Under the pieces are notes generated by a model, which was not told the origin of the DNA, made no database searches, and was given only the letters and a program-made list of their open reading frames with translations. Below are positions 1 to 12,173 of a stretch of DNA of 12,173 nt, in pieces. The position numbers and the translations under genes were made by a program. This DNA comes from a virus, in the IMG/VR virus record IMGVR_UViG_3300028883_000031, positions 1 through 12,173 of that record, one strand, 5' to 3'. The stretch's first letter is position 1, and each line of letters begins with the position of its first letter.

Positions 1-127
1 ATTCCACTTAAACTTGGTGGTCTATTAAACTTTACTCTTATTGCTAATTGATTCCAAATGTCTTGTTCTAATAAAGTCTGCTCTTCAACATACACTGGTT
101 CAAAAGTCATATAACCCACTTTAGATG
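1..127. repeat. Terminal overlap copy 1, identical to 12047..12173 (circular-assembly signature or terminal redundancy)
   Basis: Base-by-base comparison of the first 127 nt with the last 127 nt shows identity; the unit length is therefore 12,046 bp. Confidence 0.97.
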
Positions 128-1010
128 CTGCCTCTGTGAAATCAGATGTATTGGCAATAGCTTTGGGAATACCCACAGCTTGATAAAAGAACCCTTCTAA
201 ATATCTAATCCAATCCAGGAAAGGTTGTAAAGGTGGAGTTGTGTAATCCATAACTTCAATGTCTTTGTTTTGCCTTCCAGGTAATACCAAAACTTCTCCA
301 TCCTTAATTGCTGTTTTCCATTGTGTTCTTAATTCTGATAATTTGGTTGGGTTATCAATATCACAATAAATAACTCTAATTGAACTTCTATGTGATATTC
401 TTCGCCAGTCTCTCATTGCTTCATTTCTTGCTTCAATAACCCACTTAACTGCTTCCCAAGATGGAGTTCCATGTATTTCAGATGCTATTCTATCATTAGA
501 AATATGAAATATCTCCTCTGGTTGCCATTTAACCTCTGTAGGTTTTCCATCCTTTCCTAATTCAGTGTATCCTTCTATTAATCCTTTTTTATTAAATAAA
601 ACTCTTATTTTTCTTGGATTTAGAGGAATTAAATTAACTAATCTACCATCTTTCTCATCTCTAATTATTTCAGCATAAGCATCACCATTTATTTTTTTAG
701 TAATAATTAAAGAAGTCATAATTGATTGAAAACTATCTTCACCCCATCCCTCAATATTATCTAAAGTAATTTTATCTTTATCTTGTTCAACATTATAACC
801 TCTTCCAATAGCCCATCTTGCTAATGCCCTAATGGCTTCTTTAAACTCTGGAATGTTTTTATAAATTCCTAATCCCTCAGACCAATAAGTATTATCCCAA
901 TAAGTTCTCTTTTGCTCTTCTGTATCGTCAATATGTTCTGAAGGAGTTTTATAGTCGAGCCCTGCTGAGTTTAGTTCTGTTGTTGTTGTGTTTGATAAAT
1001 TTCTTTCCAT
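1..1010 (-). CDS. Portal protein, 5' 1010 nt of a 1095-nt ORF (364 aa) that wraps across the window junction to a stop at 11962
   Basis: Hand translation from ATG 1010..1008 (TAATG overlap with the upstream stop) stays open to position 1. It reads MERNLSNTTTTELNSAGLDYKTP...INGDAYAEIIRDEKDGRLVNLIPLNPRKIRV...WQPEEIFHISNDRIASEIHGTPSWEAVKWVIEARNEAMRDW...AVGIPKAIANTSDFTEAASKVGYMTFEPVY. These blocks resemble conserved blocks of the HK97/SPP1-type Phage_portal family. The gene sits in a head-module context. No search was run. Confidence 0.8.
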   Translation of the reverse strand, partial: MERNLSNTTTTELNSAGLDYKTPSEHIDDTEEQKRTYWDNTYWSEGLGIYKNIPEFKEAIRALARWAIGRGYNVEQDKDKITLDNIEGWGEDSFQSIMTSLIITKKINGDAYAEIIRDEKDGRLVNLIPLNPRKIRVLFNKKGLIEGYTELGKDGKPTEVKWQPEEIFHISNDRIASEIHGTPSWEAVKWVIEARNEAMRDWRRISHRSSIRVIYCDIDNPTKLSELRTQWKTAIKDGEVLVLPGRQNKDIEVMDYTTPPLQPFLDWIRYLEGFFYQAVGIPKAIANTSDFTEAASKVGYMTFEPVYVEEQTLLEQDIWNQLAIRVKFNRPPSLSG

Positions 1011-1684
1011 TATTCTTCTATTCTAAAAGGAACATACACATTTAAATCTGAGTGTCCGTCATCTGCTACAACCCAATCAGGTGTGCCGCCAATATCTTCA
1101 TTTTTAGGATTAATAGGCAAATACATCTGACAAGTAACCCCGTCAGAAGAACGATGTCCATACATTTCAACTTTTAATCTTAAAATATCATCTTTTACAA
1201 ATTGTTTTTCAGTCATACTCACTTCTAAACAAAATGGAAAAGTAAAAAATTTTGTATAATTTCCAGCTAATGTTTCAGTTTGCACTGTCCCTATTGTAGT
1301 GGCAGTAGTTCCGTCATAATGTTCAAATGTAAAAAGAATATATCCTTGGCATTCATCATTTGGGTTATCAGGGCAGTAAAAACCCAAAGTTCCTTCAATA
1401 TATGCTGTTCCTTTAACATATTTAGCTTTATTAAATGGAGATAAAGCAAATGTAGCTGTCTTTTCTAAAGTAAAAGAAGGACCTGCTTCTGTTAAAGCAT
1501 CACTTAAAATAAACAAAGGGTCTCCGTTTAAAATCTGTTTTGACAACTTAAATGATTCTCCAGTGGAGTCAGTGCTTCCAAAACATTTAAGAGCAACAAT
1601 ACCAGTTCCATCTGAGATGTCCTCGTAATCATAATTAATTATTTGGTTTGAACCTACATTAAAGTCTTGTGAAATTGTTGCCAT
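1010..1684 (-). CDS. Hypothetical beta-rich virion protein (224 aa)
   Basis: Long ORF tightly coupled between the 122-aa gene and the portal (one base separates it from the upstream stop; TAATG overlap downstream). Composition suggests an all-beta fold. No recognisable motif. Confidence 0.6.
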   Translation of the reverse strand: MATISQDFNVGSNQIINYDYEDISDGTGIVALKCFGSTDSTGESFKLSKQILNGDPLFILSDALTEAGPSFTLEKTATFALSPFNKAKYVKGTAYIEGTLGFYCPDNPNDECQGYILFTFEHYDGTTATTIGTVQTETLAGNYTKFFTFPFCLEVSMTEKQFVKDDILRLKVEMYGHRSSDGVTCQMYLPINPKNEDIGGTPDWVVADDGHSDLNVYVPFRIEE

Positions 1685-1685
1685 T

Positions 1686-2054
1686 TTAACTAATTGTCAA
1701 ATATGCTTTAATATTTGAATCTTTAATTTGTGCTAATCCTTTGCTTAGATGTGTTTGAAGTAAATTAAGTCTTAATGCTGCACCATTTACACCAATAGAT
1801 TCTGGTTCATATCCTATAATTTTTTGAGCAATATAAGCACAACAGATAGTGCTTAATATTTCTTTTCCACTGGAAGTCAAGGAGGCATAATTAGTTATTA
1901 CATCATAATCGCATTCATTACAGACTAAAGATTCAGCTTCATCACTCCATTTGTCGAGAGTATCTTTACTACTTCCATAATTCACAATAGTAGTATTTGT
2001 ATTAGCACCAGCCGTATCTATTGCTGCTCCGCTTGTGCATAATGTCCAACTCAT
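1686..2054 (-). CDS. Hypothetical protein (122 aa), possible head-completion/connector protein by position only
   Basis: ORF starts one base after the TerL stop (TAACATG). No motif recognised. Confidence 0.55.
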   Translation of the reverse strand: MSWTLCTSGAAIDTAGANTNTTIVNYGSSKDTLDKWSDEAESLVCNECDYDVITNYASLTSSGKEILSTICCAYIAQKIIGYEPESIGVNGAALRLNLLQTHLSKGLAQIKDSNIKAYLTIS

Positions 2055-2055
2055 G

Positions 2056-3459
2056 TTAAAAGTAATATATACTCATATTTATATGTTTCTGATTTGCTAA
2101 CCATGCTGCTCTTGTCAATCCTTCAACTAAATCTGTAAATTTATGTTGTGCAGCAAAGATTTTAACCATTGTTTTTCTACCTTCTTCTCTTGGATATTCA
2201 TACTGGATAGCTCTCAGACATTCTATTAATTCTTCGTCATCTAATAATTGAATTTTACCTTTTTCCATTAGAGCTATCAAATTATCATACAAATCTTCTT
2301 TCAAAATTCTTCTATATTTCTCATTTCTACTATCTAAAGATTTCTTCAGATTATTTATAGCAACTATCTTATGTCTTATTCCAGGTTCTTTAATTAACCA
2401 ATCAAAAATTCCAACTCCAAGACTACCAGAACCAGCATCTATTCCAATTTTACGGAAATCCCATATTGCATCCATCATTAAAATATGGTCGTAAGTTTGA
2501 GTTGTTAAAGTCTTTCTTGTGTATTGGCTTTCTCTCTGTGCTAATCTTCCTTGTGGAAGTCTCTCTATAACTTCATAAGTAGAGGCATCATCTCCCATTC
2601 TTGCTATATCAACACCCAAATAGTAATCTCTATCTGGTATTCTTTGAGTTCTCTTTAATACACAGCACTTCTTTATGATTCTATCTGAGAATAAACGTCT
2701 AAAGTCAGATACAAATTCCCCCAAGTATTCCTGTGCATATTGTAATTCAGACATTCTTGCTTTTTCTCTATCTTGATGAGCCAACATATTCGAACTTTGT
2801 GGCTCTTCTCTTTGTTTGGCAATATCTTCTGCATTGATGTGCCATGTCTTAAAGTCTTTGTCAAAGAATCTATCGTGAAAATATCCTTTATCTCCCATTG
2901 GTGTTGAGAGTAAAATTATCTTTCCGCCTGTTGTTGCTAACATTGGAGTAATGGCAGGCCAAACACTCTCTGGAATAAATGCAGCTTCGTCAGCTATTAA
3001 TAAATCAACAGTGTATCCTCGTATCCCAAGACCATCCAATCCAGTTGGCAAACATCTGATTATACTTCCATTGTTCAGCTTTATTTCTGTCTTTGTTGGT
3101 CTGTCTTTTCCTTTCTTTATCCATGTTCGGTAGTTGTCGTGTAAATATGTTAATACCTTTGAGAAAAGCAAATAAGCTTGACGCTCTGTTGCTGATATTA
3201 TCATTATGGATTGCTTTTTGTTTAGAGCTGCGAACTTTCCTGCTTTTCTTGCTATGATTGTCGATTTTCCTACTTGCCTTCCTGCTCGAAGTGCTATGTT
3301 TCCGTCGTAATCCTCTACTTCTCGCTGCCATCTGTCAAGGGTAATCTTATCAGATTCTTTAATTTGTCCTCTGACATCTTTAGAATCATCTCGTTGATTT
3401 CCTTCTCTGCTTGCATTTGCAGAATGGACTTCTCCGACTTTTCTTTTATTTGTTGCCAT
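2056..3459 (-). CDS. terL: Terminase large subunit
   Basis: 467-aa ORF with Walker A GRQVGKST, Walker B-like VDLLIADEAAF and coupling motif LLSTP. The C-terminal half has acidic RNase-H-like nuclease motifs (YLGVDIARMGDD, IGIDAGSG). Confidence 0.93.
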   Translation of the reverse strand: MATNKRKVGEVHSANASREGNQRDDSKDVRGQIKESDKITLDRWQREVEDYDGNIALRAGRQVGKSTIIARKAGKFAALNKKQSIMIISATERQAYLLFSKVLTYLHDNYRTWIKKGKDRPTKTEIKLNNGSIIRCLPTGLDGLGIRGYTVDLLIADEAAFIPESVWPAITPMLATTGGKIILLSTPMGDKGYFHDRFFDKDFKTWHINAEDIAKQREEPQSSNMLAHQDREKARMSELQYAQEYLGEFVSDFRRLFSDRIIKKCCVLKRTQRIPDRDYYLGVDIARMGDDASTYEVIERLPQGRLAQRESQYTRKTLTTQTYDHILMMDAIWDFRKIGIDAGSGSLGVGIFDWLIKEPGIRHKIVAINNLKKSLDSRNEKYRRILKEDLYDNLIALMEKGKIQLLDDEELIECLRAIQYEYPREEGRKTMVKIFAAQHKFTDLVEGLTRAAWLANQKHINMSIYYF

Positions 3460-3509
3460 AACTCTTCTTCTTGATTACCGATAACAATTTCGTTATTATT
3501 TTTTTCCAT
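3315..3509 (-). CDS. Hypothetical 64-aa acidic/coiled protein; first, leaderless ORF of the structural operon; overlaps the terL 5' end by 145 nt
   Basis: Its ATG at 3509 lies 19-21 nt from the palindromic TATA box 3529..3538. The ORF reads in a different frame from terL (start 3459). Coding status is uncertain. Confidence 0.4.
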   Translation of the reverse strand: MEKNNNEIVIGNQEEELWQQIKEKSEKSILQMQAEKEINEMILKMSEDKLKNLIRLPLTDGSEK

Positions 3510-3528
3510 AATAAAAAAAAGAAAAAAG

Positions 3529-3538
3529 TATTTAAATA
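3529..3538. promoter_or_regulatory. Palindromic TATA box TATTTAAATA, promoter of the terL/portal operon, possibly bidirectional
   Basis: Lies 19-21 nt upstream of ATG 3509, matching the spacing at five other operon starts. Confidence 0.6.
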
Positions 3539-3560
3539 ATTTGTGTTTTCTCTGTGTAGA

Positions 3561-3605
3561 GTTGAGGGGGTTTATACTTTTCCCTCCTCGACTTTTTTCT
3601 TTTTT
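3561..3605 (+). other. Imperfect 10-bp hairpin (3561..3570 / 3583..3592) followed by T6CT6; candidate small RNA or oligo-T terminator
   Basis: The stem contains two G-T pairs, which are tolerated only in a plus-strand RNA. The T-run at 3593..3605 follows immediately. The stem starts about 22 nt downstream of the TATA box at 3529..3538. Confidence 0.3.
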
Positions 3606-3757
3606 AAAATAATAAAAAAAAATTTAAAAAATTTCGTTGAGGGGTAAGCACTTTTTATAAACTACATTTTTGAACGTCGGGGTTATTTGTAGTGTATAAA
3701 TAGAAATTGATTTGCGAGTTAGCCGGTATACCGATTAACTACACTGCCTCTGCGCCT

Positions 3758-3835
3758 AATTGAATTAAGTCCGCTTTGTGAAGCGGATTGCCTCTATAGA
3801 GGCAACTTTGCCCACAGGCAAAGCTTAATTCAATT
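3758..3835. other. Perfect 78-nt four-way-junction (cloverleaf-like) element: 12-bp closing stem plus three 7-bp hairpins with 4-nt loops
   Basis: Closing stem is 3758..3769 / 3824..3835. The hairpins are 3770..3787 (loop TGTG), 3788..3805 (loop TATA) and 3806..3823 (loop CACA). All 33 pairs are Watson-Crick and no junction nucleotide is unpaired. Confidence 0.85.
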
Positions 3836-3849
3836 CCTCCTCATCCTCC

Positions 3850-3978
3850 TCCTTTACCTGTATGCGAACGCAATGTAACCGAAAATTATATATATTATGA
3901 AAACTTAGTTTGAGGAACTCAAACTAAATTCTTAAGATAAATAAAGATGCGAACGAATGTGAGCATACAGGTAAAGGA
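3850..3978. repeat. 16-bp perfect inverted repeat (3850..3865 / 3963..3978) enclosing a 10-bp hairpin (3905..3914 / 3918..3927) and a direct repeat ATGCGAACG(C)AATGT (3862..3876, 3947..3960)
   Basis: All pairs checked by hand. The enclosed segment also carries a TA-alternating stretch near 3885..3898. Confidence 0.85.
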
Positions 3979-3998
3979 ACTATAACCTCGCTCCGCTC

Positions 3999-4053
3999 GG
4001 TAAATATTGAACTGGTAAATATTGAACTGGTAAATATTGAACTGGTAAATACT
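3999..4053. repeat. Tandem 15-bp repeat GGTAAATATTGAACT, three perfect copies plus a partial copy (iteron-like)
   Basis: Copies at 3999..4013, 4014..4028 and 4029..4043, with a partial copy at 4044..4053. Confidence 0.9.
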
Positions 4054-4062
4054 AAATTATTA

Positions 4063-4089
4063 AGTAGTTATGAAAAAGTAGTTATGAAA
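4063..4089. repeat. Direct repeat AGTAGTTATGAAA, two copies with 14-bp period
   Basis: Copies at 4063..4075 and 4077..4089. Confidence 0.8.
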
Positions 4090-4165
4090 GTTTAAATAAA
4101 AGGGGTATTGTGTATTAGTAGAATATGAGTATTTTACCTGTTTGTATATCTCATGGAGGGGGAAT

Positions 4166-4291
4166 GTGTGTTCTCTCTCTGTAGGAATTTGAATTACCTT
4201 AGTTGGAATTCTATTATATTGGTTTCTTTCTTTCTTTTCTTTTTGGTTCTTTTTCTTTTCTTTCTTTCAATATGACAGAGAGAGAACACAC
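4166..4291. repeat. 17-bp perfect inverted repeat GTGTGTTCTCTCTCTGT / ACAGAGAGAGAACACAC flanking a 92-nt spacer
   Basis: Arms at 4166..4182 and 4275..4291, all pairs checked. The right arm ends 7 nt before the TATA box of the plus-strand gene. Confidence 0.9.
4226..4268. repeat. Perfect homopyrimidine mirror repeat (19 nt, 5-nt spacer, 19 nt), an H-DNA/triplex-type motif
   Basis: CTTTCTTTCTTTTCTTTTT at 4226..4244 read backwards equals TTTTTCTTTTCTTTCTTTC at 4250..4268. The spacer GGTTC is at 4245..4249. Confidence 0.85.
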
Positions 4292-4298
4292 CAAAACA

Positions 4299-4306
4299 TT
4301 TAAATA
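4299..4306 (+). promoter_or_regulatory. TATA box TTTAAATA with upstream A-rich BRE-like CAAAACA; promoter of the leaderless plus-strand gene
   Basis: Exactly 21 nt separate the box from ATG 4328. Confidence 0.65.
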
Positions 4307-4327
4307 GTTTAATGTTTTAGTTTTGAT

Positions 4328-4567
4328 ATGAATATTAATGCAATAAGAGCTGAAGAAAGACATAGAAAGATAGTAGAAATATTAGCTACTATAAAAAAAG
4401 CTTTTGAGAATGGCTTAGAATTGAATTTTGAAGCGTTGATTAATCAAGCATGCTTTCAGCAAAGAATAGCAAGAAGGACAGCCATGGAATACATAAACAT
4501 AGCATTAAGCCAAGTGGAACATAAAATAGAAGGAAAAGGAAAAAATAAATTAATAATTAAGATTTAA
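4328..4567 (+). CDS. Small winged-helix-turn-helix-like DNA-binding protein (79 aa), candidate regulator
   Basis: This is the only plus-strand gene and it is leaderless. It shows a helix-helix-helix pattern with a recognition-helix-like RIARRTAMEYINIAL, then a basic beta-hairpin-like tail KIEGKGKNKLIIKI. Assigned by eye only. Confidence 0.5.
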   Translation: MNINAIRAEERHRKIVEILATIKKAFENGLELNFEALINQACFQQRIARRTAMEYINIALSQVEHKIEGKGKNKLIIKI

Positions 4568-4911
4568 AGAGGAATAACAGTGTATTTAGTCTTTAAACCT
4601 TCACCAGATTTCTTTACTTTAATATACGTTAGCTTTGGATTCTCTAACAATATATCTTGTAAAGCCATTAGCACAGACTTAGGAACTTTATACTTTTCCC
4701 CTTCAAGCATAAAATAGCTGTAAGGAAAATCAACATCGTTCTCTTCTTGAATTAGCACATCATCAATCTTAACTTTATCTAAATCTGCAATGTTCTTAAT
4801 TTTTGGTGCTTCATAGTTTTCAGCTGTTTCTTTGAGAGTTGCCATTTGTTCTACTACCTCCTTACATCTATATAAATATTCTTCTTCACTTAGTCCTTCT
4901 TTGTTTATCAT
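4564..4911 (-). CDS. Hypothetical protein (115 aa), last gene of the small-protein operon
   Basis: Clean ORF. It overlaps the upstream gene by 26 nt, and its stop overlaps the stop of the convergent plus-strand gene. Confidence 0.6.
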   Translation of the reverse strand: MINKEGLSEEEYLYRCKEVVEQMATLKETAENYEAPKIKNIADLDKVKIDDVLIQEENDVDFPYSYFMLEGEKYKVPKSVLMALQDILLENPKLTYIKVKKSGEGLKTKYTVIPL

Positions 4912-5092
4912 TTTCTATCATATCAGCTAACACATTATAAAAACCAAATACTATTGAGAGTACTATACAAAGTCTTAAAACCCAAAAAGCATAATACCAA
5001 AATGCAAAACAAATTAAAGCAAATATAATAAACAAAAGCAAAGCAGAATAAATAAAATTCTCTGTTGTTGTTAATTCTTTTGCATAATTCAT
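4886..5092 (-). CDS. Small membrane protein (68 aa, two predicted TM helices)
   Basis: Hydrophobic stretches FIYSALLLFIIFALICFAFWYYAFWVL and CIVLSIVFGFYNVL. SD cassette GTGGAGGATTTGAAATG lies at the start. Confidence 0.6.
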   Translation of the reverse strand: MNYAKELTTTENFIYSALLLFIIFALICFAFWYYAFWVLRLCIVLSIVFGFYNVLADMIENDKQRRTK

Positions 5093-5283
5093 TTCAAATC
5101 CTCCACTTTTAATTTTTGCATAGCTTCATAATTAATGGCCTCAACTTCTTCTTTTGTTAAAAAGTTAAATCTTCTTAAAATTGTAATTGCTGCATGCACA
5201 CCTTTTCTTATTTTGACAACTCTTTCTCCAGCTTCTTCGCCTGGATAATGCATGTGATGTTTTTGCCAAACTACTTTTTTCAT
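5089..5283 (-). CDS. Hypothetical protein (64 aa)
   Basis: ORF with ATGA start/stop coupling on both sides and an upstream GAAGGATTTAAAATG. Confidence 0.6.
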   Translation of the reverse strand: MKKVVWQKHHMHYPGEEAGERVVKIRKGVHAAITILRRFNFLTKEEVEAINYEAMQKLKVEDLK

Positions 5284-5528
5284 TTTAAATCCTTCTCGTC
5301 ACAAAAGACATCTTGATTAATAAGATTAAGTCTTTTCATCCATCTCTCTGTCAAAGTATCAAAATCACAAACATTTTCAAAATCATATTTCATCCACTTA
5401 ATAGCTTCTTGTTTTAGTAAATCTTCGGGTATTGCTCTTTTCTTTTTACATTCATCCTTTAAATAAAAAAGTGGAAACCAACAAAAACATTCTTTATCTG
5501 AAAAATCTTTTAAAGTTTTAAGTTTCAT
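5280..5528 (-). CDS. Hypothetical protein (82 aa), paralogue of 5525..5734; start moved to internal Met
   Basis: The start MKLKTLKDF is preceded by GAGGAGGATTTAGAATG and overlaps the upstream stop (ATGA). It shares MKLKTLKD and EAIKW with its neighbour. Confidence 0.6.
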   Translation of the reverse strand: MKLKTLKDFSDKECFCWFPLFYLKDECKKKRAIPEDLLKQEAIKWMKYDFENVCDFDTLTERWMKRLNLINQDVFCDEKDLK

Positions 5529-5734
5529 TCTAAATCCTCCTCTCTGATGTTGAAGAAATCTAACCAATCTCTACTTGATATTGCCCCACCATAATGTTTC
5601 CACCACTTAATAGCTTCTGCTTTTAGTTTTTTATAATTAATAACCAATTCATAATCATTACTTAGGGGAGGTCTTACTTTCCTTGTTTTAGTTGTTGAAT
5701 ACCGTTTTAAATCCTTCAAAGTTTTAAGTTTCAT
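5525..5734 (-). CDS. Hypothetical protein (69 aa), paralogue of 5280..5528
   Basis: Begins MKLKTLKDLKRY and contains AEAIKWWKHY. SD cassette AAAGGAGATTTAAAATG lies at the start. Confidence 0.6.
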   Translation of the reverse strand: MKLKTLKDLKRYSTTKTRKVRPPLSNDYELVINYKKLKAEAIKWWKHYGGAISSRDWLDFFNIREEDLE

Positions 5735-5955
5735 TTTAAATCTCCTTTTTCTTTTTTATCTTTTGAGAATATTTCTTTAATAGTTTCATCAATTTCAACT
5801 CTTCTTATAAAACCATCTTCACATTTAACCCCATTATGTAATCTTATTTTCAATTCCTCAATCTTTTTTTTAAAATCCTCTTGGGCTTTTTTGTAACCCA
5901 TTTTTAATCCTATTTTAAAATCTTCACTTACATTGGTTGTTATTTCTTTTTTCAT
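5731..5955 (-). CDS. Hypothetical protein (74 aa)
   Basis: ORF with the SD cassette TTGGAGGATTTAAAAAATG. Confidence 0.6.
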   Translation of the reverse strand: MKKEITTNVSEDFKIGLKMGYKKAQEDFKKKIEELKIRLHNGVKCEDGFIRRVEIDETIKEIFSKDKKEKGDLK

Positions 5956-6034
5956 TTTTTAAATCCTCCAAACTATCATTTACTACTTCTCTCCATTTTT
6001 TACATAACTTTTTATCTTTATATTCTTTTGTCAT
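5924..6034 (-). CDS. Possible 36-aa ORF (MTKEYKDKKLCKKWREVVNDSLEDLKNEKRNNNQCK)
   Basis: Hand-translated. ATGA coupling to the upstream 44-aa ORF. It overlaps the next gene by 32 nt. Below the track threshold. Confidence 0.3.
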   Translation of the reverse strand: MTKEYKDKKLCKKWREVVNDSLEDLKNEKRNNNQCK

Positions 6035-6165
6035 TTTTTAATTATTAATTGAATCCATTTAGTTATAATTCCAATAATCGCTAAAAAAATAATTATTCCC
6101 AATCTTACATTAATGGATTTCAACAAAGTGTATAAGGCAAAGCCATCATTTGTTAAAGGCATCAT
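6031..6165 (-). CDS. Possible 44-aa single-pass membrane protein (MMPLTNDGFALYTLLKSINVRLGIIIFLAIIGIITKWIQLIIKK)
   Basis: Hand-translated, with a hydrophobic core GIIIFLAIIGII. AGGAGGT lies about 17 nt upstream. Confidence 0.4.
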   Translation of the reverse strand: MMPLTNDGFALYTLLKSINVRLGIIIFLAIIGIITKWIQLIIKK

Positions 6166-6238
6166 TTTCTAAATCTATAACCTCCTGTATTGTTTTACAA
6201 TGTTCGCATATATATTCAAAACTAATTTCTGTTTCCAT
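6146..6238 (-). CDS. Possible 30-aa ORF with a single CxxC (METEISFEYICEHCKTIQEVIDLENDAFNK)
   Basis: Hand-translated. It overlaps the 3' end of the RHH-like gene. Confidence 0.25.
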   Translation of the reverse strand: METEISFEYICEHCKTIQEVIDLENDAFNK

Positions 6239-6380
6239 TTCGTTTTACACTTTCTCCCTTTGTGAGCGTTAAAATAAATTTGTGCCATGGATAACTTGGG
6301 TTTCCTTTGCTTTTTTTTCTTTTTGCTTTCTTTAACTTTTTATATTCCTCGTCGGTAAAAGTAACATTTATTGTTTTCAT
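6222..6380 (-). CDS. Ribbon-helix-helix (CopG/Arc-like) DNA-binding protein candidate, 52 aa, first leaderless gene of the small-protein operon
   Basis: Hand-translated as MKTINVTFTDEEYKKLKKAKRKKSKGNPSYPWHKFILTLTKGESVKRNGNRN. The N-terminal beta-strand plus helix pattern (INVTFTDEEYKKLKK) is typical of RHH proteins. A TATA box lies 21 nt upstream. Confidence 0.5.
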   Translation of the reverse strand: MKTINVTFTDEEYKKLKKAKRKKSKGNPSYPWHKFILTLTKGESVKRNGNRN

Positions 6381-6401
6381 ATACTTACTTAGTAACTAAC
6401 C

Positions 6402-6409
6402 TTTATAAA
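6402..6409 (-). promoter_or_regulatory. TATA box TTTATAAA with BRE-like AGAAACA; promoter of the small-protein operon
   Basis: Exactly 21 nt separate it from ATG 6380. The flanks resemble the promoter at 10501..10508 (TTTATAAA..TAAC/TAGTTA..CTAAGTATATG). Confidence 0.65.
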
Positions 6410-6414
6410 TGTTT

Positions 6415-6570
6415 CTATTTTTCCAAAGCATCCATTAATTCCTTAATTCTTTTAAGCTGAGCTTCTAAATTCTCTTTTCTTTGAAGAAGCTGAGACTTTC
6501 CAAAAATAGTTCTACTCTCTTTTATCAGCGCAACATTATTATCATCAACTTTAATAATTTTTTCTTCCAT
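6415..6570 (-). CDS. Hypothetical 51-aa coiled-coil protein (MEEKIIKVDDNNVALIKESRTIFGKSQLLQRKENLEAQLKRIKELMDALEK)
   Basis: Hand-translated. A strong SD (GGAAGGAGGTG) lies 7 nt before the ATG, which directly follows the LamG gene stop (TAGATG). Confidence 0.55.
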   Translation of the reverse strand: MEEKIIKVDDNNVALIKESRTIFGKSQLLQRKENLEAQLKRIKELMDALEK

Positions 6571-7398
6571 CTAAAACACCTCCTTCCAACTATCATCTAC
6601 ATTAACATAGGCATTGGCTACTTCTTTCCATGCATCATCTACATTAACATAGGCATTAGCTACTTCTTTAAAAGAATCATTAATATTTAAAGTGATGTTT
6701 GTTCCAGTTGGAAGAGGGTCAAAAGGATAGGCCCAACCATCACCACCATTATATAAACTATCTATATCAGCATCAGAAATCTCATCATCAAAAATTCCAA
6801 ACTCATCAAGGTAGCCATTAAAATAAGTAAAGTAAGGATGTCTGTCCCTTCCCATATATGAAATATCTGAACCAGTGGGTCTACTTCTATCATCCCCTAC
6901 ATAATGCCAACTAACACTCTTCTCACTTCCATCAATCCAAATCTGATAATTTCCTTCTCCGCCATCTCCACTACCTGTAACAACTACGTGATACCATGTT
7001 CCAGTAGATAAATTAGCATCTGTTGTAATGTATTGATTATTTGAACCTGGAGTTCCAACAGAAAAATAATATTCTATTTCATCTCCTACAATAGCAATGC
7101 TTTCTCTGACTGCTGTATTATCACTTCCTTTATAATAAATCATTGTTCCATCTCCAGCAGCTCCTAAATCATCAGTATTAAACCAAAAAGAATAACCTAC
7201 TGATGCAGTGAAAGCATCTGAACCAAAAGAAATATAATCAGAATTAGCAGATTCAAAATCATAACTATCATTAATAATTCCAGTTTCTCCATAAGTGCAA
7301 CCATTAACAGAACCATCTAAAGAACCTTCTGCATCAATTAAGTCTCCACTACTCTCGTCAAATTTATAGTAGTGAGTGCAGTCATCTATTAATGCCAT
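6571..7398 (-). CDS. LamG/concanavalin-A-like lectin domain protein (275 aa from internal Met), probable receptor-binding or fibre-associated protein
   Basis: Begins ALIDDCTHYYKFDESSGDLIDAEGSLDGSVNG. Contains GTWYHVVVTGSG, YQIWIDGSEK and FNGYLDEFGIFDDEISDADIDSLY, the Laminin_G_3-type pattern. The start is set at ATG 7398, just after the fibre stop (TAAAATG). Confidence 0.75.
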   Translation of the reverse strand: MALIDDCTHYYKFDESSGDLIDAEGSLDGSVNGCTYGETGIINDSYDFESANSDYISFGSDAFTASVGYSFWFNTDDLGAAGDGTMIYYKGSDNTAVRESIAIVGDEIEYYFSVGTPGSNNQYITTDANLSTGTWYHVVVTGSGDGGEGNYQIWIDGSEKSVSWHYVGDDRSRPTGSDISYMGRDRHPYFTYFNGYLDEFGIFDDEISDADIDSLYNGGDGWAYPFDPLPTGTNITLNINDSFKEVANAYVNVDDAWKEVANAYVNVDDSWKEVF

Positions 7399-7399
7399 T

Positions 7400-8146
7400 T
7401 TAAGCTGTGTATTTAAAATAGATTGTTCCTTGGTTATAAAGATTTGCTGGTCCAGGATTGTCCTCTGTTCCAACTAAAATATTTCTACAAATAGCAGCGC
7501 CGCTTGCATCATTATCAGATAAAGTTTTAATTGTAGCACCTGAAACAGCCGCACCAGAAAAATGACCTGTTGAAGTAATATTTGTTTGGGTTAGTGTCTC
7601 TCCATGAGGGTCAGTTGTATCTACAAAATGAGCAGCACCACTTGCTAAATCTGTGTTCCAACTTCCACTAAGAGATAAAGGCAAATAATCAGCAACAACA
7701 GAACCACTTAAAGCCAAGAAGATTGGGTCTGCTTCTGCTGTAATAAAGTTCCCACTTAATGCCAAAAACACTGGGTCTGTTTCTGTATAAGATGTTAAAA
7801 AATTTCCTGATAGTGCCAAAAATATAGGGTCTGTTTCAGCAGTGAGAAATCCCCCTGATAGTGCTAAGAAAACTGGGTCTGTCTCTGCTGTTAAAAATCC
7901 ACCTGACAAAGCTAAAAAGACTGGGTCTGTTTCAGTGTAAGAAGTAATATAACCAGAATCATTTGTTAATTGTGAAATATTATCGCCTGTTTGTAGAAAT
8001 GTAGCAGTAGAACCTTTTTTAGCAGCGTCTTTAATACCTGAAAAATTAGGAATTATAATTGGTTCTCCAGTAGATAACTCTATTAAATTATCTTTTGCCA
8101 CCATAGTTGCTTCACTTGGCCGCCTTCCACTTCTAAAGTTTCCCAT
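7400..8146 (-). CDS. Fibre/receptor-binding-type structural protein with five ETDP(V/I)FLALSG repeats
   Basis: 248-aa ORF with 16-18-aa repeats YTETDPVFLALSGGFLTA and variants. E-T-D-P-V-F repeats are familiar from tail-fibre proteins. It sits immediately upstream of the LamG gene. Confidence 0.6.
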   Translation of the reverse strand: MGNFRSGRRPSEATMVAKDNLIELSTGEPIIIPNFSGIKDAAKKGSTATFLQTGDNISQLTNDSGYITSYTETDPVFLALSGGFLTAETDPVFLALSGGFLTAETDPIFLALSGNFLTSYTETDPVFLALSGNFITAEADPIFLALSGSVVADYLPLSLSGSWNTDLASGAAHFVDTTDPHGETLTQTNITSTGHFSGAAVSGATIKTLSDNDASGAAICRNILVGTEDNPGPANLYNQGTIYFKYTA

Positions 8147-8292
8147 TATCTAAAATTCCCACTCGCAAAAGTTAAATCTTCAATAGGTTTTAAAGACATA
8201 CCCTCTGGTTTTTCTTTAGTTGTTTCTGCTGTAATCCCCTCGGTAATAGGCCAATCTTCTTTTAATTCTTTTTGTCCTAATGTTTCAGCCAT
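8146..8292 (-). CDS. Hypothetical 48-aa protein (MAETLGQKELKEDWPITEGITAETTKEKPEGMSLKPIEDLTFASGNFR), leaderless first gene of the fibre operon
   Basis: Hand-translated. A TATA-like box lies 21 nt upstream. TAATG coupling to the fibre gene. Confidence 0.45.
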   Translation of the reverse strand: MAETLGQKELKEDWPITEGITAETTKEKPEGMSLKPIEDLTFASGNFR

Positions 8293-8313
8293 ACAAATTA
8301 ATAGAATTAATAG

Positions 8314-8321
8314 TTTATAAT
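8314..8321 (-). promoter_or_regulatory. TATA-like box (ATTATAAA on the minus strand) with upstream GGAAAAA
   Basis: Exactly 21 nt separate it from ATG 8292. Confidence 0.55.
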
Positions 8322-8333
8322 TTTTTCCTATTC

Positions 8334-8408
8334 TTAGCTTTCAGAATCGCCAGTGATTTCTTCAACAATTTCTTTTTCAACTTCTTTAGTTTGTTCTTCT
8401 GTCATCAT
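8334..8408 (-). CDS. Possible 24-aa acidic peptide (MMTEEQTKEVEKEIVEEITGDSES)
   Basis: TAATG overlap with the capsid gene stop. Very short, so coding status is doubtful. Confidence 0.2.
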   Translation of the reverse strand: MMTEEQTKEVEKEIVEEITGDSES

Positions 8409-9271
8409 TAACATCCAGTAGTCATACACATAGCATTAGGGTCAGTTACAATAACTTCTCCATCTTCCCATACTCTAACCTTAACACCAATGCCAGGCTC
8501 TTCTTTAGTAATTGCAGTGATAGGTGTAAATGATTTCCATGTAGCACACCTTTGAGGAACTATTTGCATAATTATTCCAGTTGTAGCATTTGGACTTGAT
8601 ACTATTCTTTGCCCTGCTAAATTCATAATTACTCCATCTTGCACCTTCTGAGTTGCAAATCCAGGAACATAAGTTCCTTTTTGTGTTATAATCCAATCAA
8701 GTAATGCTTTCTTTTGGTTTGGATGCATTAACACCACCAAGTTAGAAGTATCATAATTTCGTTGTTCTATTAAATTAGCACCTGAAAGTAAATCTCTAAC
8801 TGGATTACATGACGCAATAGTATCCCAGTCAGCAGTAGCAGCACCACTTAAAGCAACTTGTCCACTTAATACATCGTAAATTCTATAATCAATTTGATTC
8901 TGAACAGCCCTTGTTAAATCTCTCACATTAATAGCCAGCATATCTAAATCACTATCTCTAATGTCTGCATAAGTAAACCATGGAGATTCAACTGAGAAAT
9001 GTTTAACATATGAAGTGTGTCTTGTTGCTGATTGTTCAGCAATAGGAGGCAAAGCACCAAAAGCAACTTTAGATATTTGAGATGCAGTTATTCCAGTTGT
9101 ATCAGTTGAATCTAATACACCTGATGTTTTCCTATACCATCTAATCTCACGAGCACTTGTAGGAGAGTTTGCTAAAAACTTCTTGAATATAAACATTTGG
9201 TCAGCATAACCTTTAGCTAATTTGTCTACATTCAATCCACGAAGGTCAGCTTGTCCTAATGTATCTGCCAT
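8408..9271 (-). CDS. Major capsid protein, HK97 fold
   Basis: 287-aa ORF directly downstream of a DUF2190-like gene, with a scaffold-like gene further upstream. It has a long helix-like segment INVRDLTRAVQNQIDYRIYDVL and overall resembles phage major capsid proteins. Assigned by eye. Confidence 0.8.
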   Translation of the reverse strand: MADTLGQADLRGLNVDKLAKGYADQMFIFKKFLANSPTSAREIRWYRKTSGVLDSTDTTGITASQISKVAFGALPPIAEQSATRHTSYVKHFSVESPWFTYADIRDSDLDMLAINVRDLTRAVQNQIDYRIYDVLSGQVALSGAATADWDTIASCNPVRDLLSGANLIEQRNYDTSNLVVLMHPNQKKALLDWIITQKGTYVPGFATQKVQDGVIMNLAGQRIVSSPNATTGIIMQIVPQRCATWKSFTPITAITKEEPGIGVKVRVWEDGEVIVTDPNAMCMTTGC

Positions 9272-9272
9272 T

Positions 9273-9686
9273 TTATACTGCGGCTCCTATGTTTAAAGTA
9301 TATCTAAATGTTTCTCCAGCAGCAGCAGCTTCTTTAGAGATTCCAATAGTATGACTACCTGAAAGTCCTGCTGTAGCAGCTTGTAAGTGATTAGGAAAAG
9401 CAGCATCGCAACTTGAAAGAGTATCTCCAATAGCAATAGCACCTGAAGCATAAGCTCTCAATTCATCACCAGGCCCGTTAAGAACTGCTATCTGAGTATT
9501 TCCATCATCAGCAATTTTTTCAGTGTAAGCAATACCTCCAACAACATCTTCAGCTGTATCATTAGCAGCAACAGTGTTTGGGTCAGTCATCTTTAAAACT
9601 GTCCCTTTTTCAATTCCAGTGCCATCTGCGCAAGTCATAGAAGTAGGAAAAGTCTTTTGTAACATTAATACATGTTCATTAGCCAT
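9273..9686 (-). CDS. DUF2190-like head decoration/cement protein (137 aa from ATG 9686)
   Basis: Pattern GTVLKMTDPNTVAA...VVGGIAYTEKIADDGNTQIAVLNGPGDELRAYASGAIAIGDTL, located immediately before the capsid gene. The track start at 9701 is a GTG, whereas ATG 9686 lies exactly 21 nt from a TATA box. Confidence 0.6.
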   Translation of the reverse strand: MANEHVLMLQKTFPTSMTCADGTGIEKGTVLKMTDPNTVAANDTAEDVVGGIAYTEKIADDGNTQIAVLNGPGDELRAYASGAIAIGDTLSSCDAAFPNHLQAATAGLSGSHTIGISKEAAAAGETFRYTLNIGAAV

Positions 9687-9707
9687 AAAAAACTTATACA
9701 CTACAAG

Positions 9708-9715
9708 TATTTAAA
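9708..9715 (-). promoter_or_regulatory. TATA box (TTTAAATA on the minus strand) with BRE-like CAAAAGA; capsid operon promoter
   Basis: Exactly 21 nt separate it from ATG 9686. Confidence 0.65.
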
Positions 9716-9727
9716 TCTTTTGTTTTT

Positions 9728-10219
9728 TTATAATCCCTCATGATTACCCAGTGCTGTTTGAATTGGAAGGTCAGGTCTCCATCCAATACCTAAAATATTA
9801 ACATGTTCCTTATATATTGGATTTCTCCAAAACCCTAATGAAGTGTCTTTAACTAATTTCTTTGCCTTTAACATTATTCTTAATGCTGATAAATAACCTT
9901 GAACTCCAAAACCACTTCTGAAAGAATTGCCAGTTCCTTCTTCTTTAGCACCAGTATCTAACCAGGTTTCACTTGTAGGAATACCCAAAGTATTACACAT
10001 AGGGCCTACATATTCGTCAGGAATTACATACTCCCATAATTGAATAGGTCTAATTGCACCTTCTACATTTGTAATAACTTCACTTTCTATTTCTTTACCA
10101 GTATCTTTATCTATAAATTTCTTTTTAGATTTAAAAGGAAAATATTGAGACTTTAAATTTTCAATTAACTTTCTTACATGGTCTTGATGTCCTCGTGTAA
10201 TAAAATATATTCCTGCCAT
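9728..10219 (-). CDS. Hypothetical protein (163 aa) in the head module
   Basis: Clean ORF sharing base 10219 with the upstream stop (TAATG). No motif recognised, and I cannot support a protease call. Confidence 0.6.
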   Translation of the reverse strand: MAGIYFITRGHQDHVRKLIENLKSQYFPFKSKKKFIDKDTGKEIESEVITNVEGAIRPIQLWEYVIPDEYVGPMCNTLGIPTSETWLDTGAKEEGTGNSFRSGFGVQGYLSALRIMLKAKKLVKDTSLGFWRNPIYKEHVNILGIGWRPDLPIQTALGNHEGL

Positions 10220-10479
10220 TAATATTCGCCCCTCTCTATTCTATCCACATAATCCGAGGGTGTTTCTTCTTTTTTTTCAGGTTCTTCTCCTCTTTCGCTT
10301 TTTCCACCGAGAATGTTCCGAGCAGCTAACTCTTCATTTCTCTCAACTAATTCTCTCATTTGTTCAACTGCTTTTTCATTTTTCTCAGCTAACTCACGAG
10401 CTTCTTTTAAAAAATCTGCTCTTGCAGGTTTCTTAACATCTTCAGGTTTAACATCTTCTTCAGAATTTTCTGTTTCCAT
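10219..10479 (-). CDS. Scaffolding-like protein (86 aa, acidic, coiled-coil)
   Basis: Highly charged helical sequence FLKEARELAEKNEKAVEQMRELVERNEELAARNILGG, upstream of the decoration and capsid genes. Leaderless, with a TATA box 21 nt upstream. Confidence 0.5.
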   Translation of the reverse strand: METENSEEDVKPEDVKKPARADFLKEARELAEKNEKAVEQMRELVERNEELAARNILGGKSERGEEPEKKEETPSDYVDRIERGEY

Positions 10480-10500
10480 ATACTTAGTTAGTTAGTTTAG

Positions 10501-10508
10501 TTTATAAA
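10501..10508 (-). promoter_or_regulatory. TATA box TTTATAAA with BRE-like AGAAAAA
   Basis: Exactly 21 nt separate it from ATG 10479. Confidence 0.65.
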
Positions 10509-10513
10509 TTTTT

Positions 10514-10603
10514 CTATAATAAGAAAGATAAAACTTTTAAAATAAACACTCCTAAGACAGCTCCTCCAAATGCTCTCCAAAAATCAATTTCTCCGTTTCT
10601 CAT
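10514..10603 (-). CDS. Possible 29-aa membrane peptide (MRNGEIDFWRAFGGAVLGVFILKVLSFLL)
   Basis: Hand-translated. ATGA overlap with the stop of the 386-aa gene. Confidence 0.3.
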   Translation of the reverse strand: MRNGEIDFWRAFGGAVLGVFILKVLSFLL

Positions 10604-11760
10604 TTTAAGTTCACCATATTGTTTGTAGATTGATTTGTTTGAGAAGTGAAATACAGCATATCATTAGGAATTATATCTTTCTCTCCAAGCATTAAAGTAT
10701 TTTCCACAGCCCTTAAAGTTTCAGCCATGTTATTTCTTGCAGTTGCTATTTCTTGTTGTAAAACTAAATATTCTTTTGAAGATTTAAATTTAATATTTGC
10801 TATTGAACGCTGTTTTAATATAGCTTCCCATTCTTGAATTTGTTGTTGTTGTTTTTGAATAGTCATAAAAATTGTTTGTGGTGGCATTCCAGCGTCTAAG
10901 TTTCCTCTTAATTGGTCTTGTGCACTATCTACTTCAGAAACATATTGTGATGCAATATCTATTTTATCTTGACCTAAAGAAGCTGGATTAGAACCTCCTA
11001 TTATTGCACCAAATGCAGCACCACCAGCAGCTCCCATTTTTCCAGTAGCCAACTTTGCAGCACCTAAAACCTCAGCTCCACCCAGAGCACCAGCAGCTAT
11101 TAAAGCACCACCTAACATCCCAATAACTTTTGCTCCTCTTAATCTTGCCAAGTCTTTATTATCAAAACCTAAACTCTTAAACATGAAATTCTGAGAAGAT
11201 GCAAAAGGCATCTGAGCAGTTAAAACCTTAGCAATATCTCTCTCTCCTAATCCTTCTAAACCTTCTAAAAATGTTCTGGCTAATTCAGGTTGATTAATAG
11301 CCATCTCTTCTAATTCTTGTGTAAGTGGTTGAACTTGTCCCTCAACAAATTCTTCTCTTGCTATTCTTTCTTCATCAGGTAGTTCATCTGTTGTGATTAT
11401 TCCCTTTTCTAATTTTGGAAATCTTGGGTCATCTTCTGGAATGCCTGCGTTTCTTGCTCTGGCTTGTGCTAACTCTAATTTATCTTTATCTGTTTTAACA
11501 TCTTTATTTTTAAGACTTTGTTCTGCTGTTATATTTGCAGCAGTTACTCTATTCTGTTGTATTTGCTTTTGTTCTTCACTTAAATTTTTAGGGTATCTTC
11601 TTGTAGGTTTAGCTGCTTCTGTTACATTATCCAAAGTGCTCATAGGTGCAGAGCTTCCGCCACCGCTGCTTTTCTTCTTCTTTTTCTTAAAGGGATTTCC
11701 GTAATCTTTAGCCGAAGATGTGCTTACTAAATTCCCTCTCTTATCAAATACGATTGCCAT
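10600..11760 (-). CDS. Large virion protein candidate (386 aa) with a central glycine-zipper hydrophobic segment; internal/ejection or tape-measure-like
   Basis: A K6-SSGGGSS low-complexity stretch is followed by helical charged regions. A segment VIGMLGGALIAAGALGGAEVLGAAKLATGKMGAAGGAAFGAIIGG follows, then a Q-rich coiled C-terminus. It lies downstream of the portal. Function is inferred from composition only. Confidence 0.65.
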   Translation of the reverse strand: MAIVFDKRGNLVSTSSAKDYGNPFKKKKKKSSGGGSSAPMSTLDNVTEAAKPTRRYPKNLSEEQKQIQQNRVTAANITAEQSLKNKDVKTDKDKLELAQARARNAGIPEDDPRFPKLEKGIITTDELPDEERIAREEFVEGQVQPLTQELEEMAINQPELARTFLEGLEGLGERDIAKVLTAQMPFASSQNFMFKSLGFDNKDLARLRGAKVIGMLGGALIAAGALGGAEVLGAAKLATGKMGAAGGAAFGAIIGGSNPASLGQDKIDIASQYVSEVDSAQDQLRGNLDAGMPPQTIFMTIQKQQQQIQEWEAILKQRSIANIKFKSSKEYLVLQQEIATARNNMAETLRAVENTLMLGEKDIIPNDMLYFTSQTNQSTNNMVNLK

Positions 11761-11767
11761 TTTTTAT

Positions 11768-11965
11768 TTACCAGTAATGTTTTTTTCTTCCCCAATATTT
11801 AAAAAACTCTAACCCAGCCCCCACAATAATGCAGAGGAATCCGAAATAGTCTCTTGCTTGAACCATTACAACACCCGATGCTGTTAAAGCCAAAGCACAA
11901 GTGTTAATAATAGTTTCTATTATTGGTTTATGAACTCCGTTTTCTTCTATTTGTTTCTTTGTCAT
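11768..11965 (-). CDS. Small two-TM membrane protein (65 aa), holin-like by architecture only
   Basis: Hydrophobic segments IINTCALALTASGVVMV and FGFLCIIVGAGLEFF, with a basic C-terminus GRKKHYW. ATGA overlap with the portal stop. Confidence 0.55.
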   Translation of the reverse strand: MTKKQIEENGVHKPIIETIINTCALALTASGVVMVQARDYFGFLCIIVGAGLEFFKYWGRKKHYW

Positions 11966-12173
11966 TCTGTTCGTTGTATATTTAATTCTGATTCGTTAGG
12001 TTGAAAACCTACTTGTCCTTGGTTCTTTTGTTCTTCTTCTTGCATCATTCCACTTAAACTTGGTGGTCTATTAAACTTTACTCTTATTGCTAATTGATTC
12101 CAAATGTCTTGTTCTAATAAAGTCTGCTCTTCAACATACACTGGTTCAAAAGTCATATAACCCACTTTAGATG
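11962..12173 (-). CDS. Portal protein, C-terminal segment; 12047..12173 duplicates 1..127, and unique sequence 11962..12046 carries the stop
   Basis: The 67-aa track ORF (M)GYMTFEPVYVEEQ... matches the in-frame continuation of the ORF leaving position 1. Its apparent M is a GTG inside the portal frame. Confidence 0.8.
   Translation of the reverse strand, partial: SKVGYMTFEPVYVEEQTLLEQDIWNQLAIRVKFNRPPSLSGMMQEEEQKNQGQVGFQPNESELNIQRTE
12047..12173. repeat. Terminal overlap copy 2, identical to 1..127
   Basis: Same comparison as for 1..127. Confidence 0.97.

Follow-up and report, generated by a model that had tools for sequence, protein, structure and literature searches.

Six probable archaeal core promoters set at a fixed distance from start codons in a 12-kb HK97-type virus genome

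The stretch of DNA analyzed here (the window) is the 12,173-nt IMG/VR virus record IMGVR_UViG_3300028883_000031, positions 1 to 12,173, and the elements in question are six TATA-like boxes that stand at an almost constant distance in front of start codons (P1 to P5 on the minus strand and P-plus on the plus strand). Bases 12047-12173 repeat bases 1-127, and this 127-bp overlap marks the window as a complete genome of ~12,046 bp unique length that is either circular or has redundant ends. Its G+C content is 33% (A+T 67%), and the minus strand carries almost all genes, the single plus-strand gene being one of 79 aa. Profile scans with Pfam, PHROGs and NCBIfam, which covered 20 of the 24 listed open reading frames (ORFs), identified only a portal protein, the terminase large subunit (TerL), an HK97-type major capsid protein (MCP), a LamG/ConA-like protein and a protein with a tail-fibre-like repeat; no host-diagnostic family was among these matches, and no polymerase, integrase or transcription factor was recognizable in them. 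The genome is without an RNA polymerase or transcription factor B (TFB) of its own. We consider it quite likely that the six sites are archaeal core promoters giving leaderless mRNAs, a reading from which we infer binding by TATA-binding protein (TBP) and TFB, the exact position of the transcription start and an archaeal host.

Boxes, start codons and upstream strings were compared base by base with the sequence. All six boxes and ATGs described by an earlier first-pass annotation of this DNA are in place, as are the five A-rich purine heptamers that it had quoted in front of the boxes and that resemble the TFB-recognition element (BRE) (Table 1). The 21-nt spacing that it had reported is exact at five sites, and at the sixth (3529-3538) the distance is 19 or 21 nt depending on how the palindromic box is read. 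T occupies position -1 at all six sites in the window. All five ATGs with the 21-nt spacing open ORFs directly after the only non-coding gaps of the coding strand, and these gaps are 34-41 nt long once two small ORFs are counted, just room for 7 + 8 + 21 nt. These small ORFs lie in apparent gaps of 115-120 nt: one (8334-8405, minus strand) encodes an acidic peptide of 24-31 aa (MMTEEQTKEVEKEIVEEITGDSES), the other (10514-10603, minus strand) a 29-aa hydrophobic/membrane peptide (MRNGEIDFWRAFGGAVLGVFILKVLSFLL) whose stop codon overlaps the BRE of P2, and both are omitted from the public gene calls of the ENA copy of this genome (L008).

Table 1. Probable promoter sites, predicted transcription units and identifiable genes of the window
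Feature	Position	Strand	BRE-like element	TATA box	Spacer and start codon	Genes or basis of assignment
Promoter P1	3507-3545	-		palindromic TATTTAAATA 3529-3538	T-rich; 19 nt for TTTAAATA, 21 nt if the box is read TATTTAAA; ATG 3509	64-aa gene, then TerL
Promoter P2	10477-10515	-	AGAAAAA 10509-10515	TTTATAAA 10501-10508	21 nt; ATG 10479	86-aa gene, then 163-aa gene
Promoter P3	9684-9722	-	CAAAAGA 9716-9722	TTTAAATA 9708-9715	21 nt; ATG 9686	137-aa gene, then major capsid gene
Promoter P4	8290-8328	-	GGAAAAA 8322-8328	ATTATAAA 8314-8321	21 nt; ATG 8292	48-aa gene, then tail-fibre-like and LamG genes
Promoter P5	6378-6416	-	AGAAACA 6410-6416	TTTATAAA 6402-6409	21 nt; ATG 6380	52-aa gene leading the small-gene block; 34-nt gap to the upstream gene
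Promoter P-plus	4292-4330	+	CAAAACA 4292-4298	TTTAAATA 4299-4306	21 nt; ATG 4328	79-aa divergent gene
Unit 1, first part	1-3509	-				64-aa gene, TerL, 122-aa gene, 224-aa gene, portal start
Unit 1, second part	10514-12046	-				portal end (11962), 65-aa gene, 386-aa gene, 29-aa membrane ORF
Unit 2	9728-10479	-				86-aa and 163-aa genes
Unit 3	8334-9686	-				137-aa gene (9273-9686), MCP (8408-9271), small acidic ORF
Unit 4	6415-8292	-				48-aa gene, 248-aa tail-fibre-like gene, LamG-domain gene, 51-aa gene
Unit 5	4564-6380	-				at least 8 small genes (44-115 aa), most internal starts after GGAGG-type Shine-Dalgarno motifs
Unit 6	4328-4567	+				single 79-aa gene
Portal gene	ATG 1010, across the circular junction, end 11962	-				profile search
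TerL	2056-3459	-				profile search
HK97-type MCP	8408-9271	-				profile search
LamG/ConA-like protein	6571-7473	-				profile search
248-aa protein with tail-fibre-like repeat	7400-8146	-				profile search

The 8-mer scan and shuffling test that the first-pass annotation had named as a check place the 21-nt spacing beyond chance. WTTAWAWA-N21-ATG was found five times in the window against 0.56 expected, a number reached in 0 of 200 shuffles, and in a second shuffle test (0.53 expected) in 0 of 2000; when any gap of 0-60 nt is admitted, P is ~0.0095. The bare WTTAWAWA 8-mer is hardly enriched (36 versus 28 expected), so it is the spacing that is the special feature. In addition, a position weight matrix (PWM) trained on relatives only and then scanned over all window positions, with shuffle maxima as the control, ranked the six sites 1, 2, 3, 4, 6 and 8. 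P3 scored best (20.4 bits) and P-plus second (18.3 bits), followed by P5 (16.1), P2 (16.0), P4 (12.5) and P1 (11.3), and four of the sites lie above the 95th percentile of shuffle maxima (15.3 bits).

The same arrangement recurs in a comparative set of 91 related loci, the capsid proteins of which are 38-76% identical to that of the window virus. On the coding strand of these loci, the WTTAWAWA-to-ATG distance was 21 nt in 102 cases, 22 nt in 42 and 23 nt in 23 over a background of ~14, and the distances on the opposite strand were flat; the spike remained when one mismatch was admitted (261 versus ~100). Toward short distances the distribution ends in a hard wall at 21 nt, and it tails off to 23 nt; in ten relatives with 42-51% G+C, 9 of the 28 coding-strand motifs are followed after 21-23 nt by an ORF of 50 aa or more. 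A logo built from 96 unique sites reads A/C-G-A-A-A-n-R (mGAAAnr) abutting TTTAAATA, with A at 80, 75 and 89% at positions -34..-32 and, before them, G (50%) and A/C. The 21-nt spacer holds at most 0.32 bit per position and is AT-rich in its last 10 nt, with T at 55% at -10, a pyrimidine at 73% at -1 and an A+T fraction of ~0.77 over -11..-2.

Logos anchored on the start codon and free of any search pattern gave the same picture. For the homologues of the 137-aa gene behind P3, the logo reads aAAa..TTtAAata over -34..-22, with the box at -29..-22 (T 64-80% at -29..-27, A 62-75% at -26..-24) and AAA at -34..-32, and the strict pattern finds the box of these homologues at 21 nt (36 cases), 22 nt (16) or 23 nt (5). 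Forty homologue upstream sequences of the 48-aa gene behind P4 gave the start-anchored logo agaaaa.Ttt.taaA at the same place, and no box appeared in the start-anchored logos of the capsid and portal genes of the relatives, which are internal genes. The 79-aa gene behind P-plus has a homologue in two relatives, one of which (L003) has TTTATATA-N21-ATG in front of its copy. The 64-aa gene behind P1 is conserved in five relatives, which have the motif IGTxEExFW in common, and in one of them (L005) TATTTAAA-N21-ATG precedes the homologue with the same T-rich spacer as in the window. The box, the upstream element and their distance from the start codon are thus kept while the spacer varies, which points to selection on a promoter, beyond mere shared ancestry.

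These data bear directly on the idea that the motif is no promoter at all but either an operator to which a DNA-binding protein of the virus attaches or a side effect of common descent and of intergenic sequence rich in A+T, which we regard as highly improbable. The A+T content of the genome and the small surplus of the bare 8-mer given above would suit it, as would the finding that part of the matches in relatives merely reflect encoded peptides, such as FKY in the 65-aa protein or KH(L/I)N at the TerL C-terminus; yet the spacing spike is strand-specific, tied to ORF starts and persistent at 42-51% G+C, only the spacer is left unconserved next to box, upstream GAAA and distance, and shuffles never reach five matches. 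A candidate seventh site, TATAAATA at 2076-2083 (minus strand), is preceded by CAGAAACA and falls within the 3' end of TerL, with a 21-nt distance to the ATG at 2054 that opens the 122-aa gene. It scores 8.5 bits with the PWM and encodes a conserved KH(L/I)N peptide, and a few relatives have TTTAAAT(A/C) at 21 nt at the TerL 3' end; it is an uncertain candidate, which may be a promoter embedded in TerL or may merely reflect the encoded peptide.

The proposal of leaderless mRNAs depends on the geometry of the sites and on the ribosome-binding signals around them. An ATG 21-23 nt after the box would be compatible only with a transcription start predicted at about -2..+1 of the ATG, and the hard wall at 21 nt would arise because the start falls on the A of the ATG at minimal spacing, so that any shorter spacing would cut off the start codon. 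GGAG or GAGG within -18..-4 precedes 5% of the 137-aa gene homologues and 2% of the 48-aa gene homologues; the values in relatives are 49% for the capsid gene and 25-53% for internal genes, and in the window the internal genes are preceded by GGAGG, AGGAG or AAGGAGG. Together, the family logo, the geometry, this Shine-Dalgarno split and the misfit with sigma-70 promoters described below support the first-pass view of archaeal promoters with leaderless mRNAs, with the start sites as predicted ones. A variant of it, in which the promoters are archaeal without being strictly leaderless, either with transcription starting several nucleotides upstream or with read-through prevailing and the boxes acting as boosters, seems quite unlikely to us. 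Mapped archaeal promoters do vary by ±2 nt in TATA-to-start spacing, relatives tolerate 22 and 23 nt, and terminator-like elements are missing between the co-directional units, all in agreement with this variant; however, a start more than 2-3 nt before the ATG needs a TATA-to-start distance below 19 nt, which is beyond the mapped range, and Shine-Dalgarno motifs are absent at the box-fronted genes.

The leaderless reading is tied to the choice of start codons, and the first-pass annotation had moved the start of the 137-aa gene from GTG 9701 to ATG 9686. The correction is supported: a homologue is present in 90 of the 91 loci, and its aligned start is ATG-GCA. In 37 of the 80 distinct upstream sequences from these 90 loci, an in-frame stop lies within seven codons upstream of that start, and the public gene calls give a product of 137 aa. 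The protein has no family match in Pfam, PHROGs or NCBIfam and is at most a putative 'decoration' protein. At P1, the 64-aa ORF (3315-3509, minus strand) overlaps the TerL ORF by 145 nt in a different frame, and the homology of TerL starts only at about residue 38. The 64-aa ORF is a real gene, conserved as described above; for TerL, a start further downstream at a codon other than ATG is possible, as is a genuine overlap of the two genes, and the 64-aa protein could be an analogue of the small terminase subunit. In the small-gene block, a TATA-like TTTATATA at 4869-4876 (minus strand) lies 23 nt upstream of an internal ATG of a 115-aa ORF (4564-4911), and this ATG is preceded by AAGGAGG; the gene probably starts there, giving 93 aa, which matches the call of the public record.

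The first-pass annotation had also held that neither bacterial sigma-70 nor Bacteroidota promoter geometry fits these sites, and this is borne out, since neither element type is present in the family logo and sigma-70 sites are not enriched. Sigma-70-like sites number 41 in the window against 50.2±7.6 in shuffles, and none of them is placed to serve the gaps. In the logo, A at -11 reaches only 19% and T at -7 only 32%, conservation of the -35 type is absent 17 nt upstream of the box (at most 0.14 bit), and the Bacteroidota elements -33 TTTG and -7 TAnnTTTG are not seen in the weakly conserved spacer, in which G never exceeds 36%. We therefore consider it improbable that the boxes are -10-like elements (TAAATA/TATAAA) for a factor of the sigma-70 family, for example in a host of the candidate phyla radiation (CPR)/Patescibacteria, with a leader of ~14 nt and no Shine-Dalgarno motif. 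The boxes do contain TAnAnA-like hexamers, the family has been found in 0.1-µm groundwater fractions, which are CPR-rich, and several relatives are in bins labelled Patescibacteria, Staskawiczbacteria and Pacebacteria. The box, however, ends in A where a -10 element needs T, nothing is conserved at the place of a -35 element, and bacterial promoters offer no equivalent of the GAAA that is conserved two bases upstream. A leaderless bacterial model would put the -10 element at -12..-7, a placement at odds with the low frequency of A at -11. With a 14-nt leader, one would expect neither the fixed distance from box to start codon nor its wall at 21 nt; leaders of ~14 nt that lack Shine-Dalgarno motifs would also be out of keeping with the strong motifs of the internal genes, and the bins just mentioned hold the relatives as stand-alone viral contigs throughout.

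Several observations weigh against archaeal promoters as the explanation. On PWM score alone, the sites at 8314 (P4) and 3529 (P1) fall below the shuffle maximum. The homologues of the 86-aa gene behind P2 keep the box in a minority only, and a Shine-Dalgarno motif is present in 28% of these homologues. Because of the common descent of the relatives, the site counts are counts of non-independent events. The GTDB and NCBI bins that contain relatives are labelled both archaeal (Thaumarchaeota, Pacearchaeota) and bacterial (Anaerolineales, Richelia, Bacteroides and others, in addition to the three labels given above); a scan of GTDB genomes found nine relatives, all of them stand-alone viral contigs in bins of inconsistent taxonomy, and because binned relatives are free viral contigs, their bin labels carry little weight either way. 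Finally, the family PWM finds no sites of the same geometry in the archaeal viruses SIRV2, SSV1, PAV1 and psiM2. The bacterial Staphylococcus phage 44AHJD and Pelagibacter phage HTVC010P gave essentially no matches of this geometry either, and since archaeal lineages vary in their BREs, this control is silent on the host domain; the family motif is lineage-specific and not a generic archaeal detector. A plain histogram of 8-mer spacing did set the family apart from these two bacterial phages, which are AT-rich and lack a peak at ~21 nt, but SIRV2 likewise lacks one at 21 nt.

With archaeal core promoters kept as the likely reading, the transcription units listed in Table 1 can be considered. 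The first-pass annotation had divided the genome into five minus-strand operons and one plus-strand gene. This is a fair map, although no terminator-like elements were seen between the co-directional units of the window, so nested or read-through transcripts across these units are likely. The product of the divergent 79-aa gene is a probable regulator, and relatives have a CcdA/RHH-like gene at its position.

Between the divergent promoters P1 and P-plus lies an extremely structured non-coding region of 818 nt (3510-4327), above all in its part 3650-4000. Folded as RNA, this part has an energy of -107.4 kcal/mol (z = -8.5) and contains a cloverleaf-like four-way junction, in which a 12-bp stem (3758-3769 / 3824-3835) closes three 7-bp hairpins, and a perfect 16-bp inverted repeat (3850-3865 / 3963-3978). 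Three tandem 15-nt units, GGTAAATATTGAACT, are present at 3999-4058. In the ENA copy of the genome, the non-coding region aligns over 801 nt versus 816 nt, which suggests that this copy has one 15-nt repeat unit fewer than the window. In relatives, the corresponding place is taken by a non-coding region of 630-900 nt that contains arrays of perfect hairpins and has z values as low as -8.8, but nhmmer found no sequence similarity to the window region in them. The region could be a replication origin, a set of protein-binding palindromes or a non-coding RNA (ncRNA). The fifth-ranked PWM match in the window also falls here, at 3623-3630 on the plus strand (14.3 bits; BRE and TATA box 3616-3630); it has no ATG downstream, and its predicted start at ~3652 is just before the structured region, so that an ncRNA promoter is possible at this site. 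On the plus strand, the palindromic TATA box at 3529-3538 scores 10.9 bits and is followed by a hairpin, GTTGAGGGGG...CCCTCCTCGAC, with a T-run (3560-3605). The element ACAGAGA(GAG)AACACA stands directly upstream of the BRE at both divergent promoters (3542-3555 and 4275-4291), and a perfect 17-nt inverted copy of it lies at 4166-4182. It looks like a putative operator for a shared regulator, perhaps the product of the 79-aa plus-strand gene.

By its capsid and terminase, the window virus belongs to a very large uncultured family of ~12-kb HK97-type viruses: 896 relatives were found by capsid (E <= 1e-3) and 2,802 by terminase (E <= 1e-10), and among the best 120 matches per protein the longest contigs cluster at ~11-13 kb. 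One relative's contig of more than 12 kb (L098; ENA ERZ27315667 k141_367485, 18,355 nt) was considered as a provirus and rejected; it has the terminase gene at both ends and is a concatemer or an assembly wrap-around. Among isolates, TerL matches the archaeal Halogranum tailed virus 1 best (E = 3e-41), and a Thermus phage comes next (2e-19). In tblastn searches against isolated phages, the capsid had no match at E <= 1e-3, and the sole match of the portal was a marginal one that covered 24% of the protein (Microbacterium phage, E = 4e-3). Searched against PDB sequences, the capsid profile and TerL brought up nothing beyond generic terminase matches (T4/Thermus). The window had no match in searches for tRNAs and Rfam families, and a literature search gave no description of this virus family or its promoters. 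In the 248-aa protein, an 18-aa motif, TETDPVFLALSGGFLTAE, is repeated in tandem about five times, and the N-terminus of the protein matches a tail-fibre PHROG. The LamG/ConA-like protein comes next after it, and annotated ConA-like lectin proteins are also present in the archaeal virus PAV1.

In the mechanism that we propose, six host-type archaeal core promoters would drive the genes of this small HK97-type virus. The purine-rich element mGAAAnr, recognized by TFB, would abut the 8-bp TTTAWATA-like box, which host TBP would bind; TBP and TFB would then position RNA polymerase so that transcription begins ~22 nt after the box. With the start on the A of the ATG or 1-2 nt before it, the first gene of each unit would be translated from a leaderless mRNA, and the later genes from GGAGG-type Shine-Dalgarno sites. 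The promoters would fill the 34-41-nt gaps, and five co-directional units plus one divergent regulator gene would span the genome.

For viruses known from metagenomes, finding the host is the main bottleneck, and binning into metagenome-assembled genomes is contradictory here; a BRE/TATA grammar locked to start codons would be a cis-acting signature of the host transcription machinery, and its conservation therefore argues for an archaeal host of this abundant ~12-kb HK97 family. It would also provide a ready transcript map of six units, in which gene starts are corrected and candidates for early and late units can be named. A wider proposal is offered tentatively, as one that may or may not survive: the family, which is found in marine samples, in sediments and in 0.1-µm fractions of groundwater, might form a lineage of worldwide distribution, so far without a description, that comprises the smallest archaeal HK97 viruses of the head-tail type. 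DPANN or Nitrososphaeria hosts might fit it, five to seven host-type leaderless promoters would run all expression, and each genome has a highly structured non-coding region of 0.6-0.9 kb that possibly has a promoter of its own. If this proposal is true, the promoter grammar would be the first and only host marker at the level of the domain for the family.

Halogranum tailed virus 1, the archaeal tailed virus that is nearest among isolates by TerL (29.8% identity over 90% of the protein), differs from the window virus in its 144-kb genome and halophilic host. A genome of 12.0 kb is near the lower limit for HK97-capsid viruses with terminase and portal, and the smallest tailed-phage genomes, those of Salmonella phage Astrid and satellite P4, are 11.6 kb (cited in bioRxiv 10.1101/2025.06.18.659913). 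Astrid and P4 are a bacterial virus and a satellite, whereas the window family has archaeal-type promoters and no sequence similarity to them.

The promoters themselves can be set beside mapped archaeal ones. In Methanocaldococcus jannaschii, 131 mapped promoters contain a BRE, an 8-bp TATA box and an AT-rich proximal promoter element (PPE) at -11..-2, best conserved at -11/-10; the first transcribed base is A or G, preceded by T at -1, and the spacing rule is 23±2 nt (PMC2699501). The same four-element grammar of BRE, TATA box, PPE and initiator (Inr) is found here. An 8-bp A/T box of the TTTAWATA type is present at all six window sites, a purine-rich BRE lies directly upstream of the box in the window and in the family, and with +1 at the A of the ATG a weak signal of an Inr and an AT-rich PPE is seen, mapped promoters being similarly weak in these elements. 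Shine-Dalgarno motifs are lacking at promoter-proximal starts, as expected of leaderless genes, at the low frequencies given above. Unlike the window virus, in which the box is locked to the start codon and reads TTTAAATA or TTTATAAA, M. jannaschii has mRNAs mostly with a leader and a ribosome-binding site and a TATA box of the form TWTATATA. A leaderless first gene without a ribosome-binding site, followed by internal genes with Shine-Dalgarno motifs, is the pattern of Sulfolobus-type operons (PMC2699501), a likeness drawn here from sequence statistics alone.

Among archaeal viruses, the TATA consensus of fuselloviruses is TTTAWAWA (PMC6080066), and the GenBank record of SSV1 (NC_001338) gives the starts that Reiter et al. 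mapped experimentally, with the leaderless transcripts T3, T4 and T9 beginning 1 nt before the ATG. Measured on NC_001338, the distance from 8-mer to ATG is 21, 20 and 23 nt for T3, T4 and T9, respectively, so that these transcripts share with the window virus a TTTAAA/TTTATA-type box at a nearly equal distance from the ATG. The two viruses are also alike in that promoters are packed between close co-directional genes of a small circular viral genome. They differ in their BREs, which are G+C-rich in SSV1 (AGGCCC) and A-rich in the window virus (mGAAAnr), and a fusellovirus and an HK97-capsid virus are unrelated, the latter probably having a mesophilic host in this case. The mechanism is textbook archaeal biology, and what is surprising is the virus and not the promoter.

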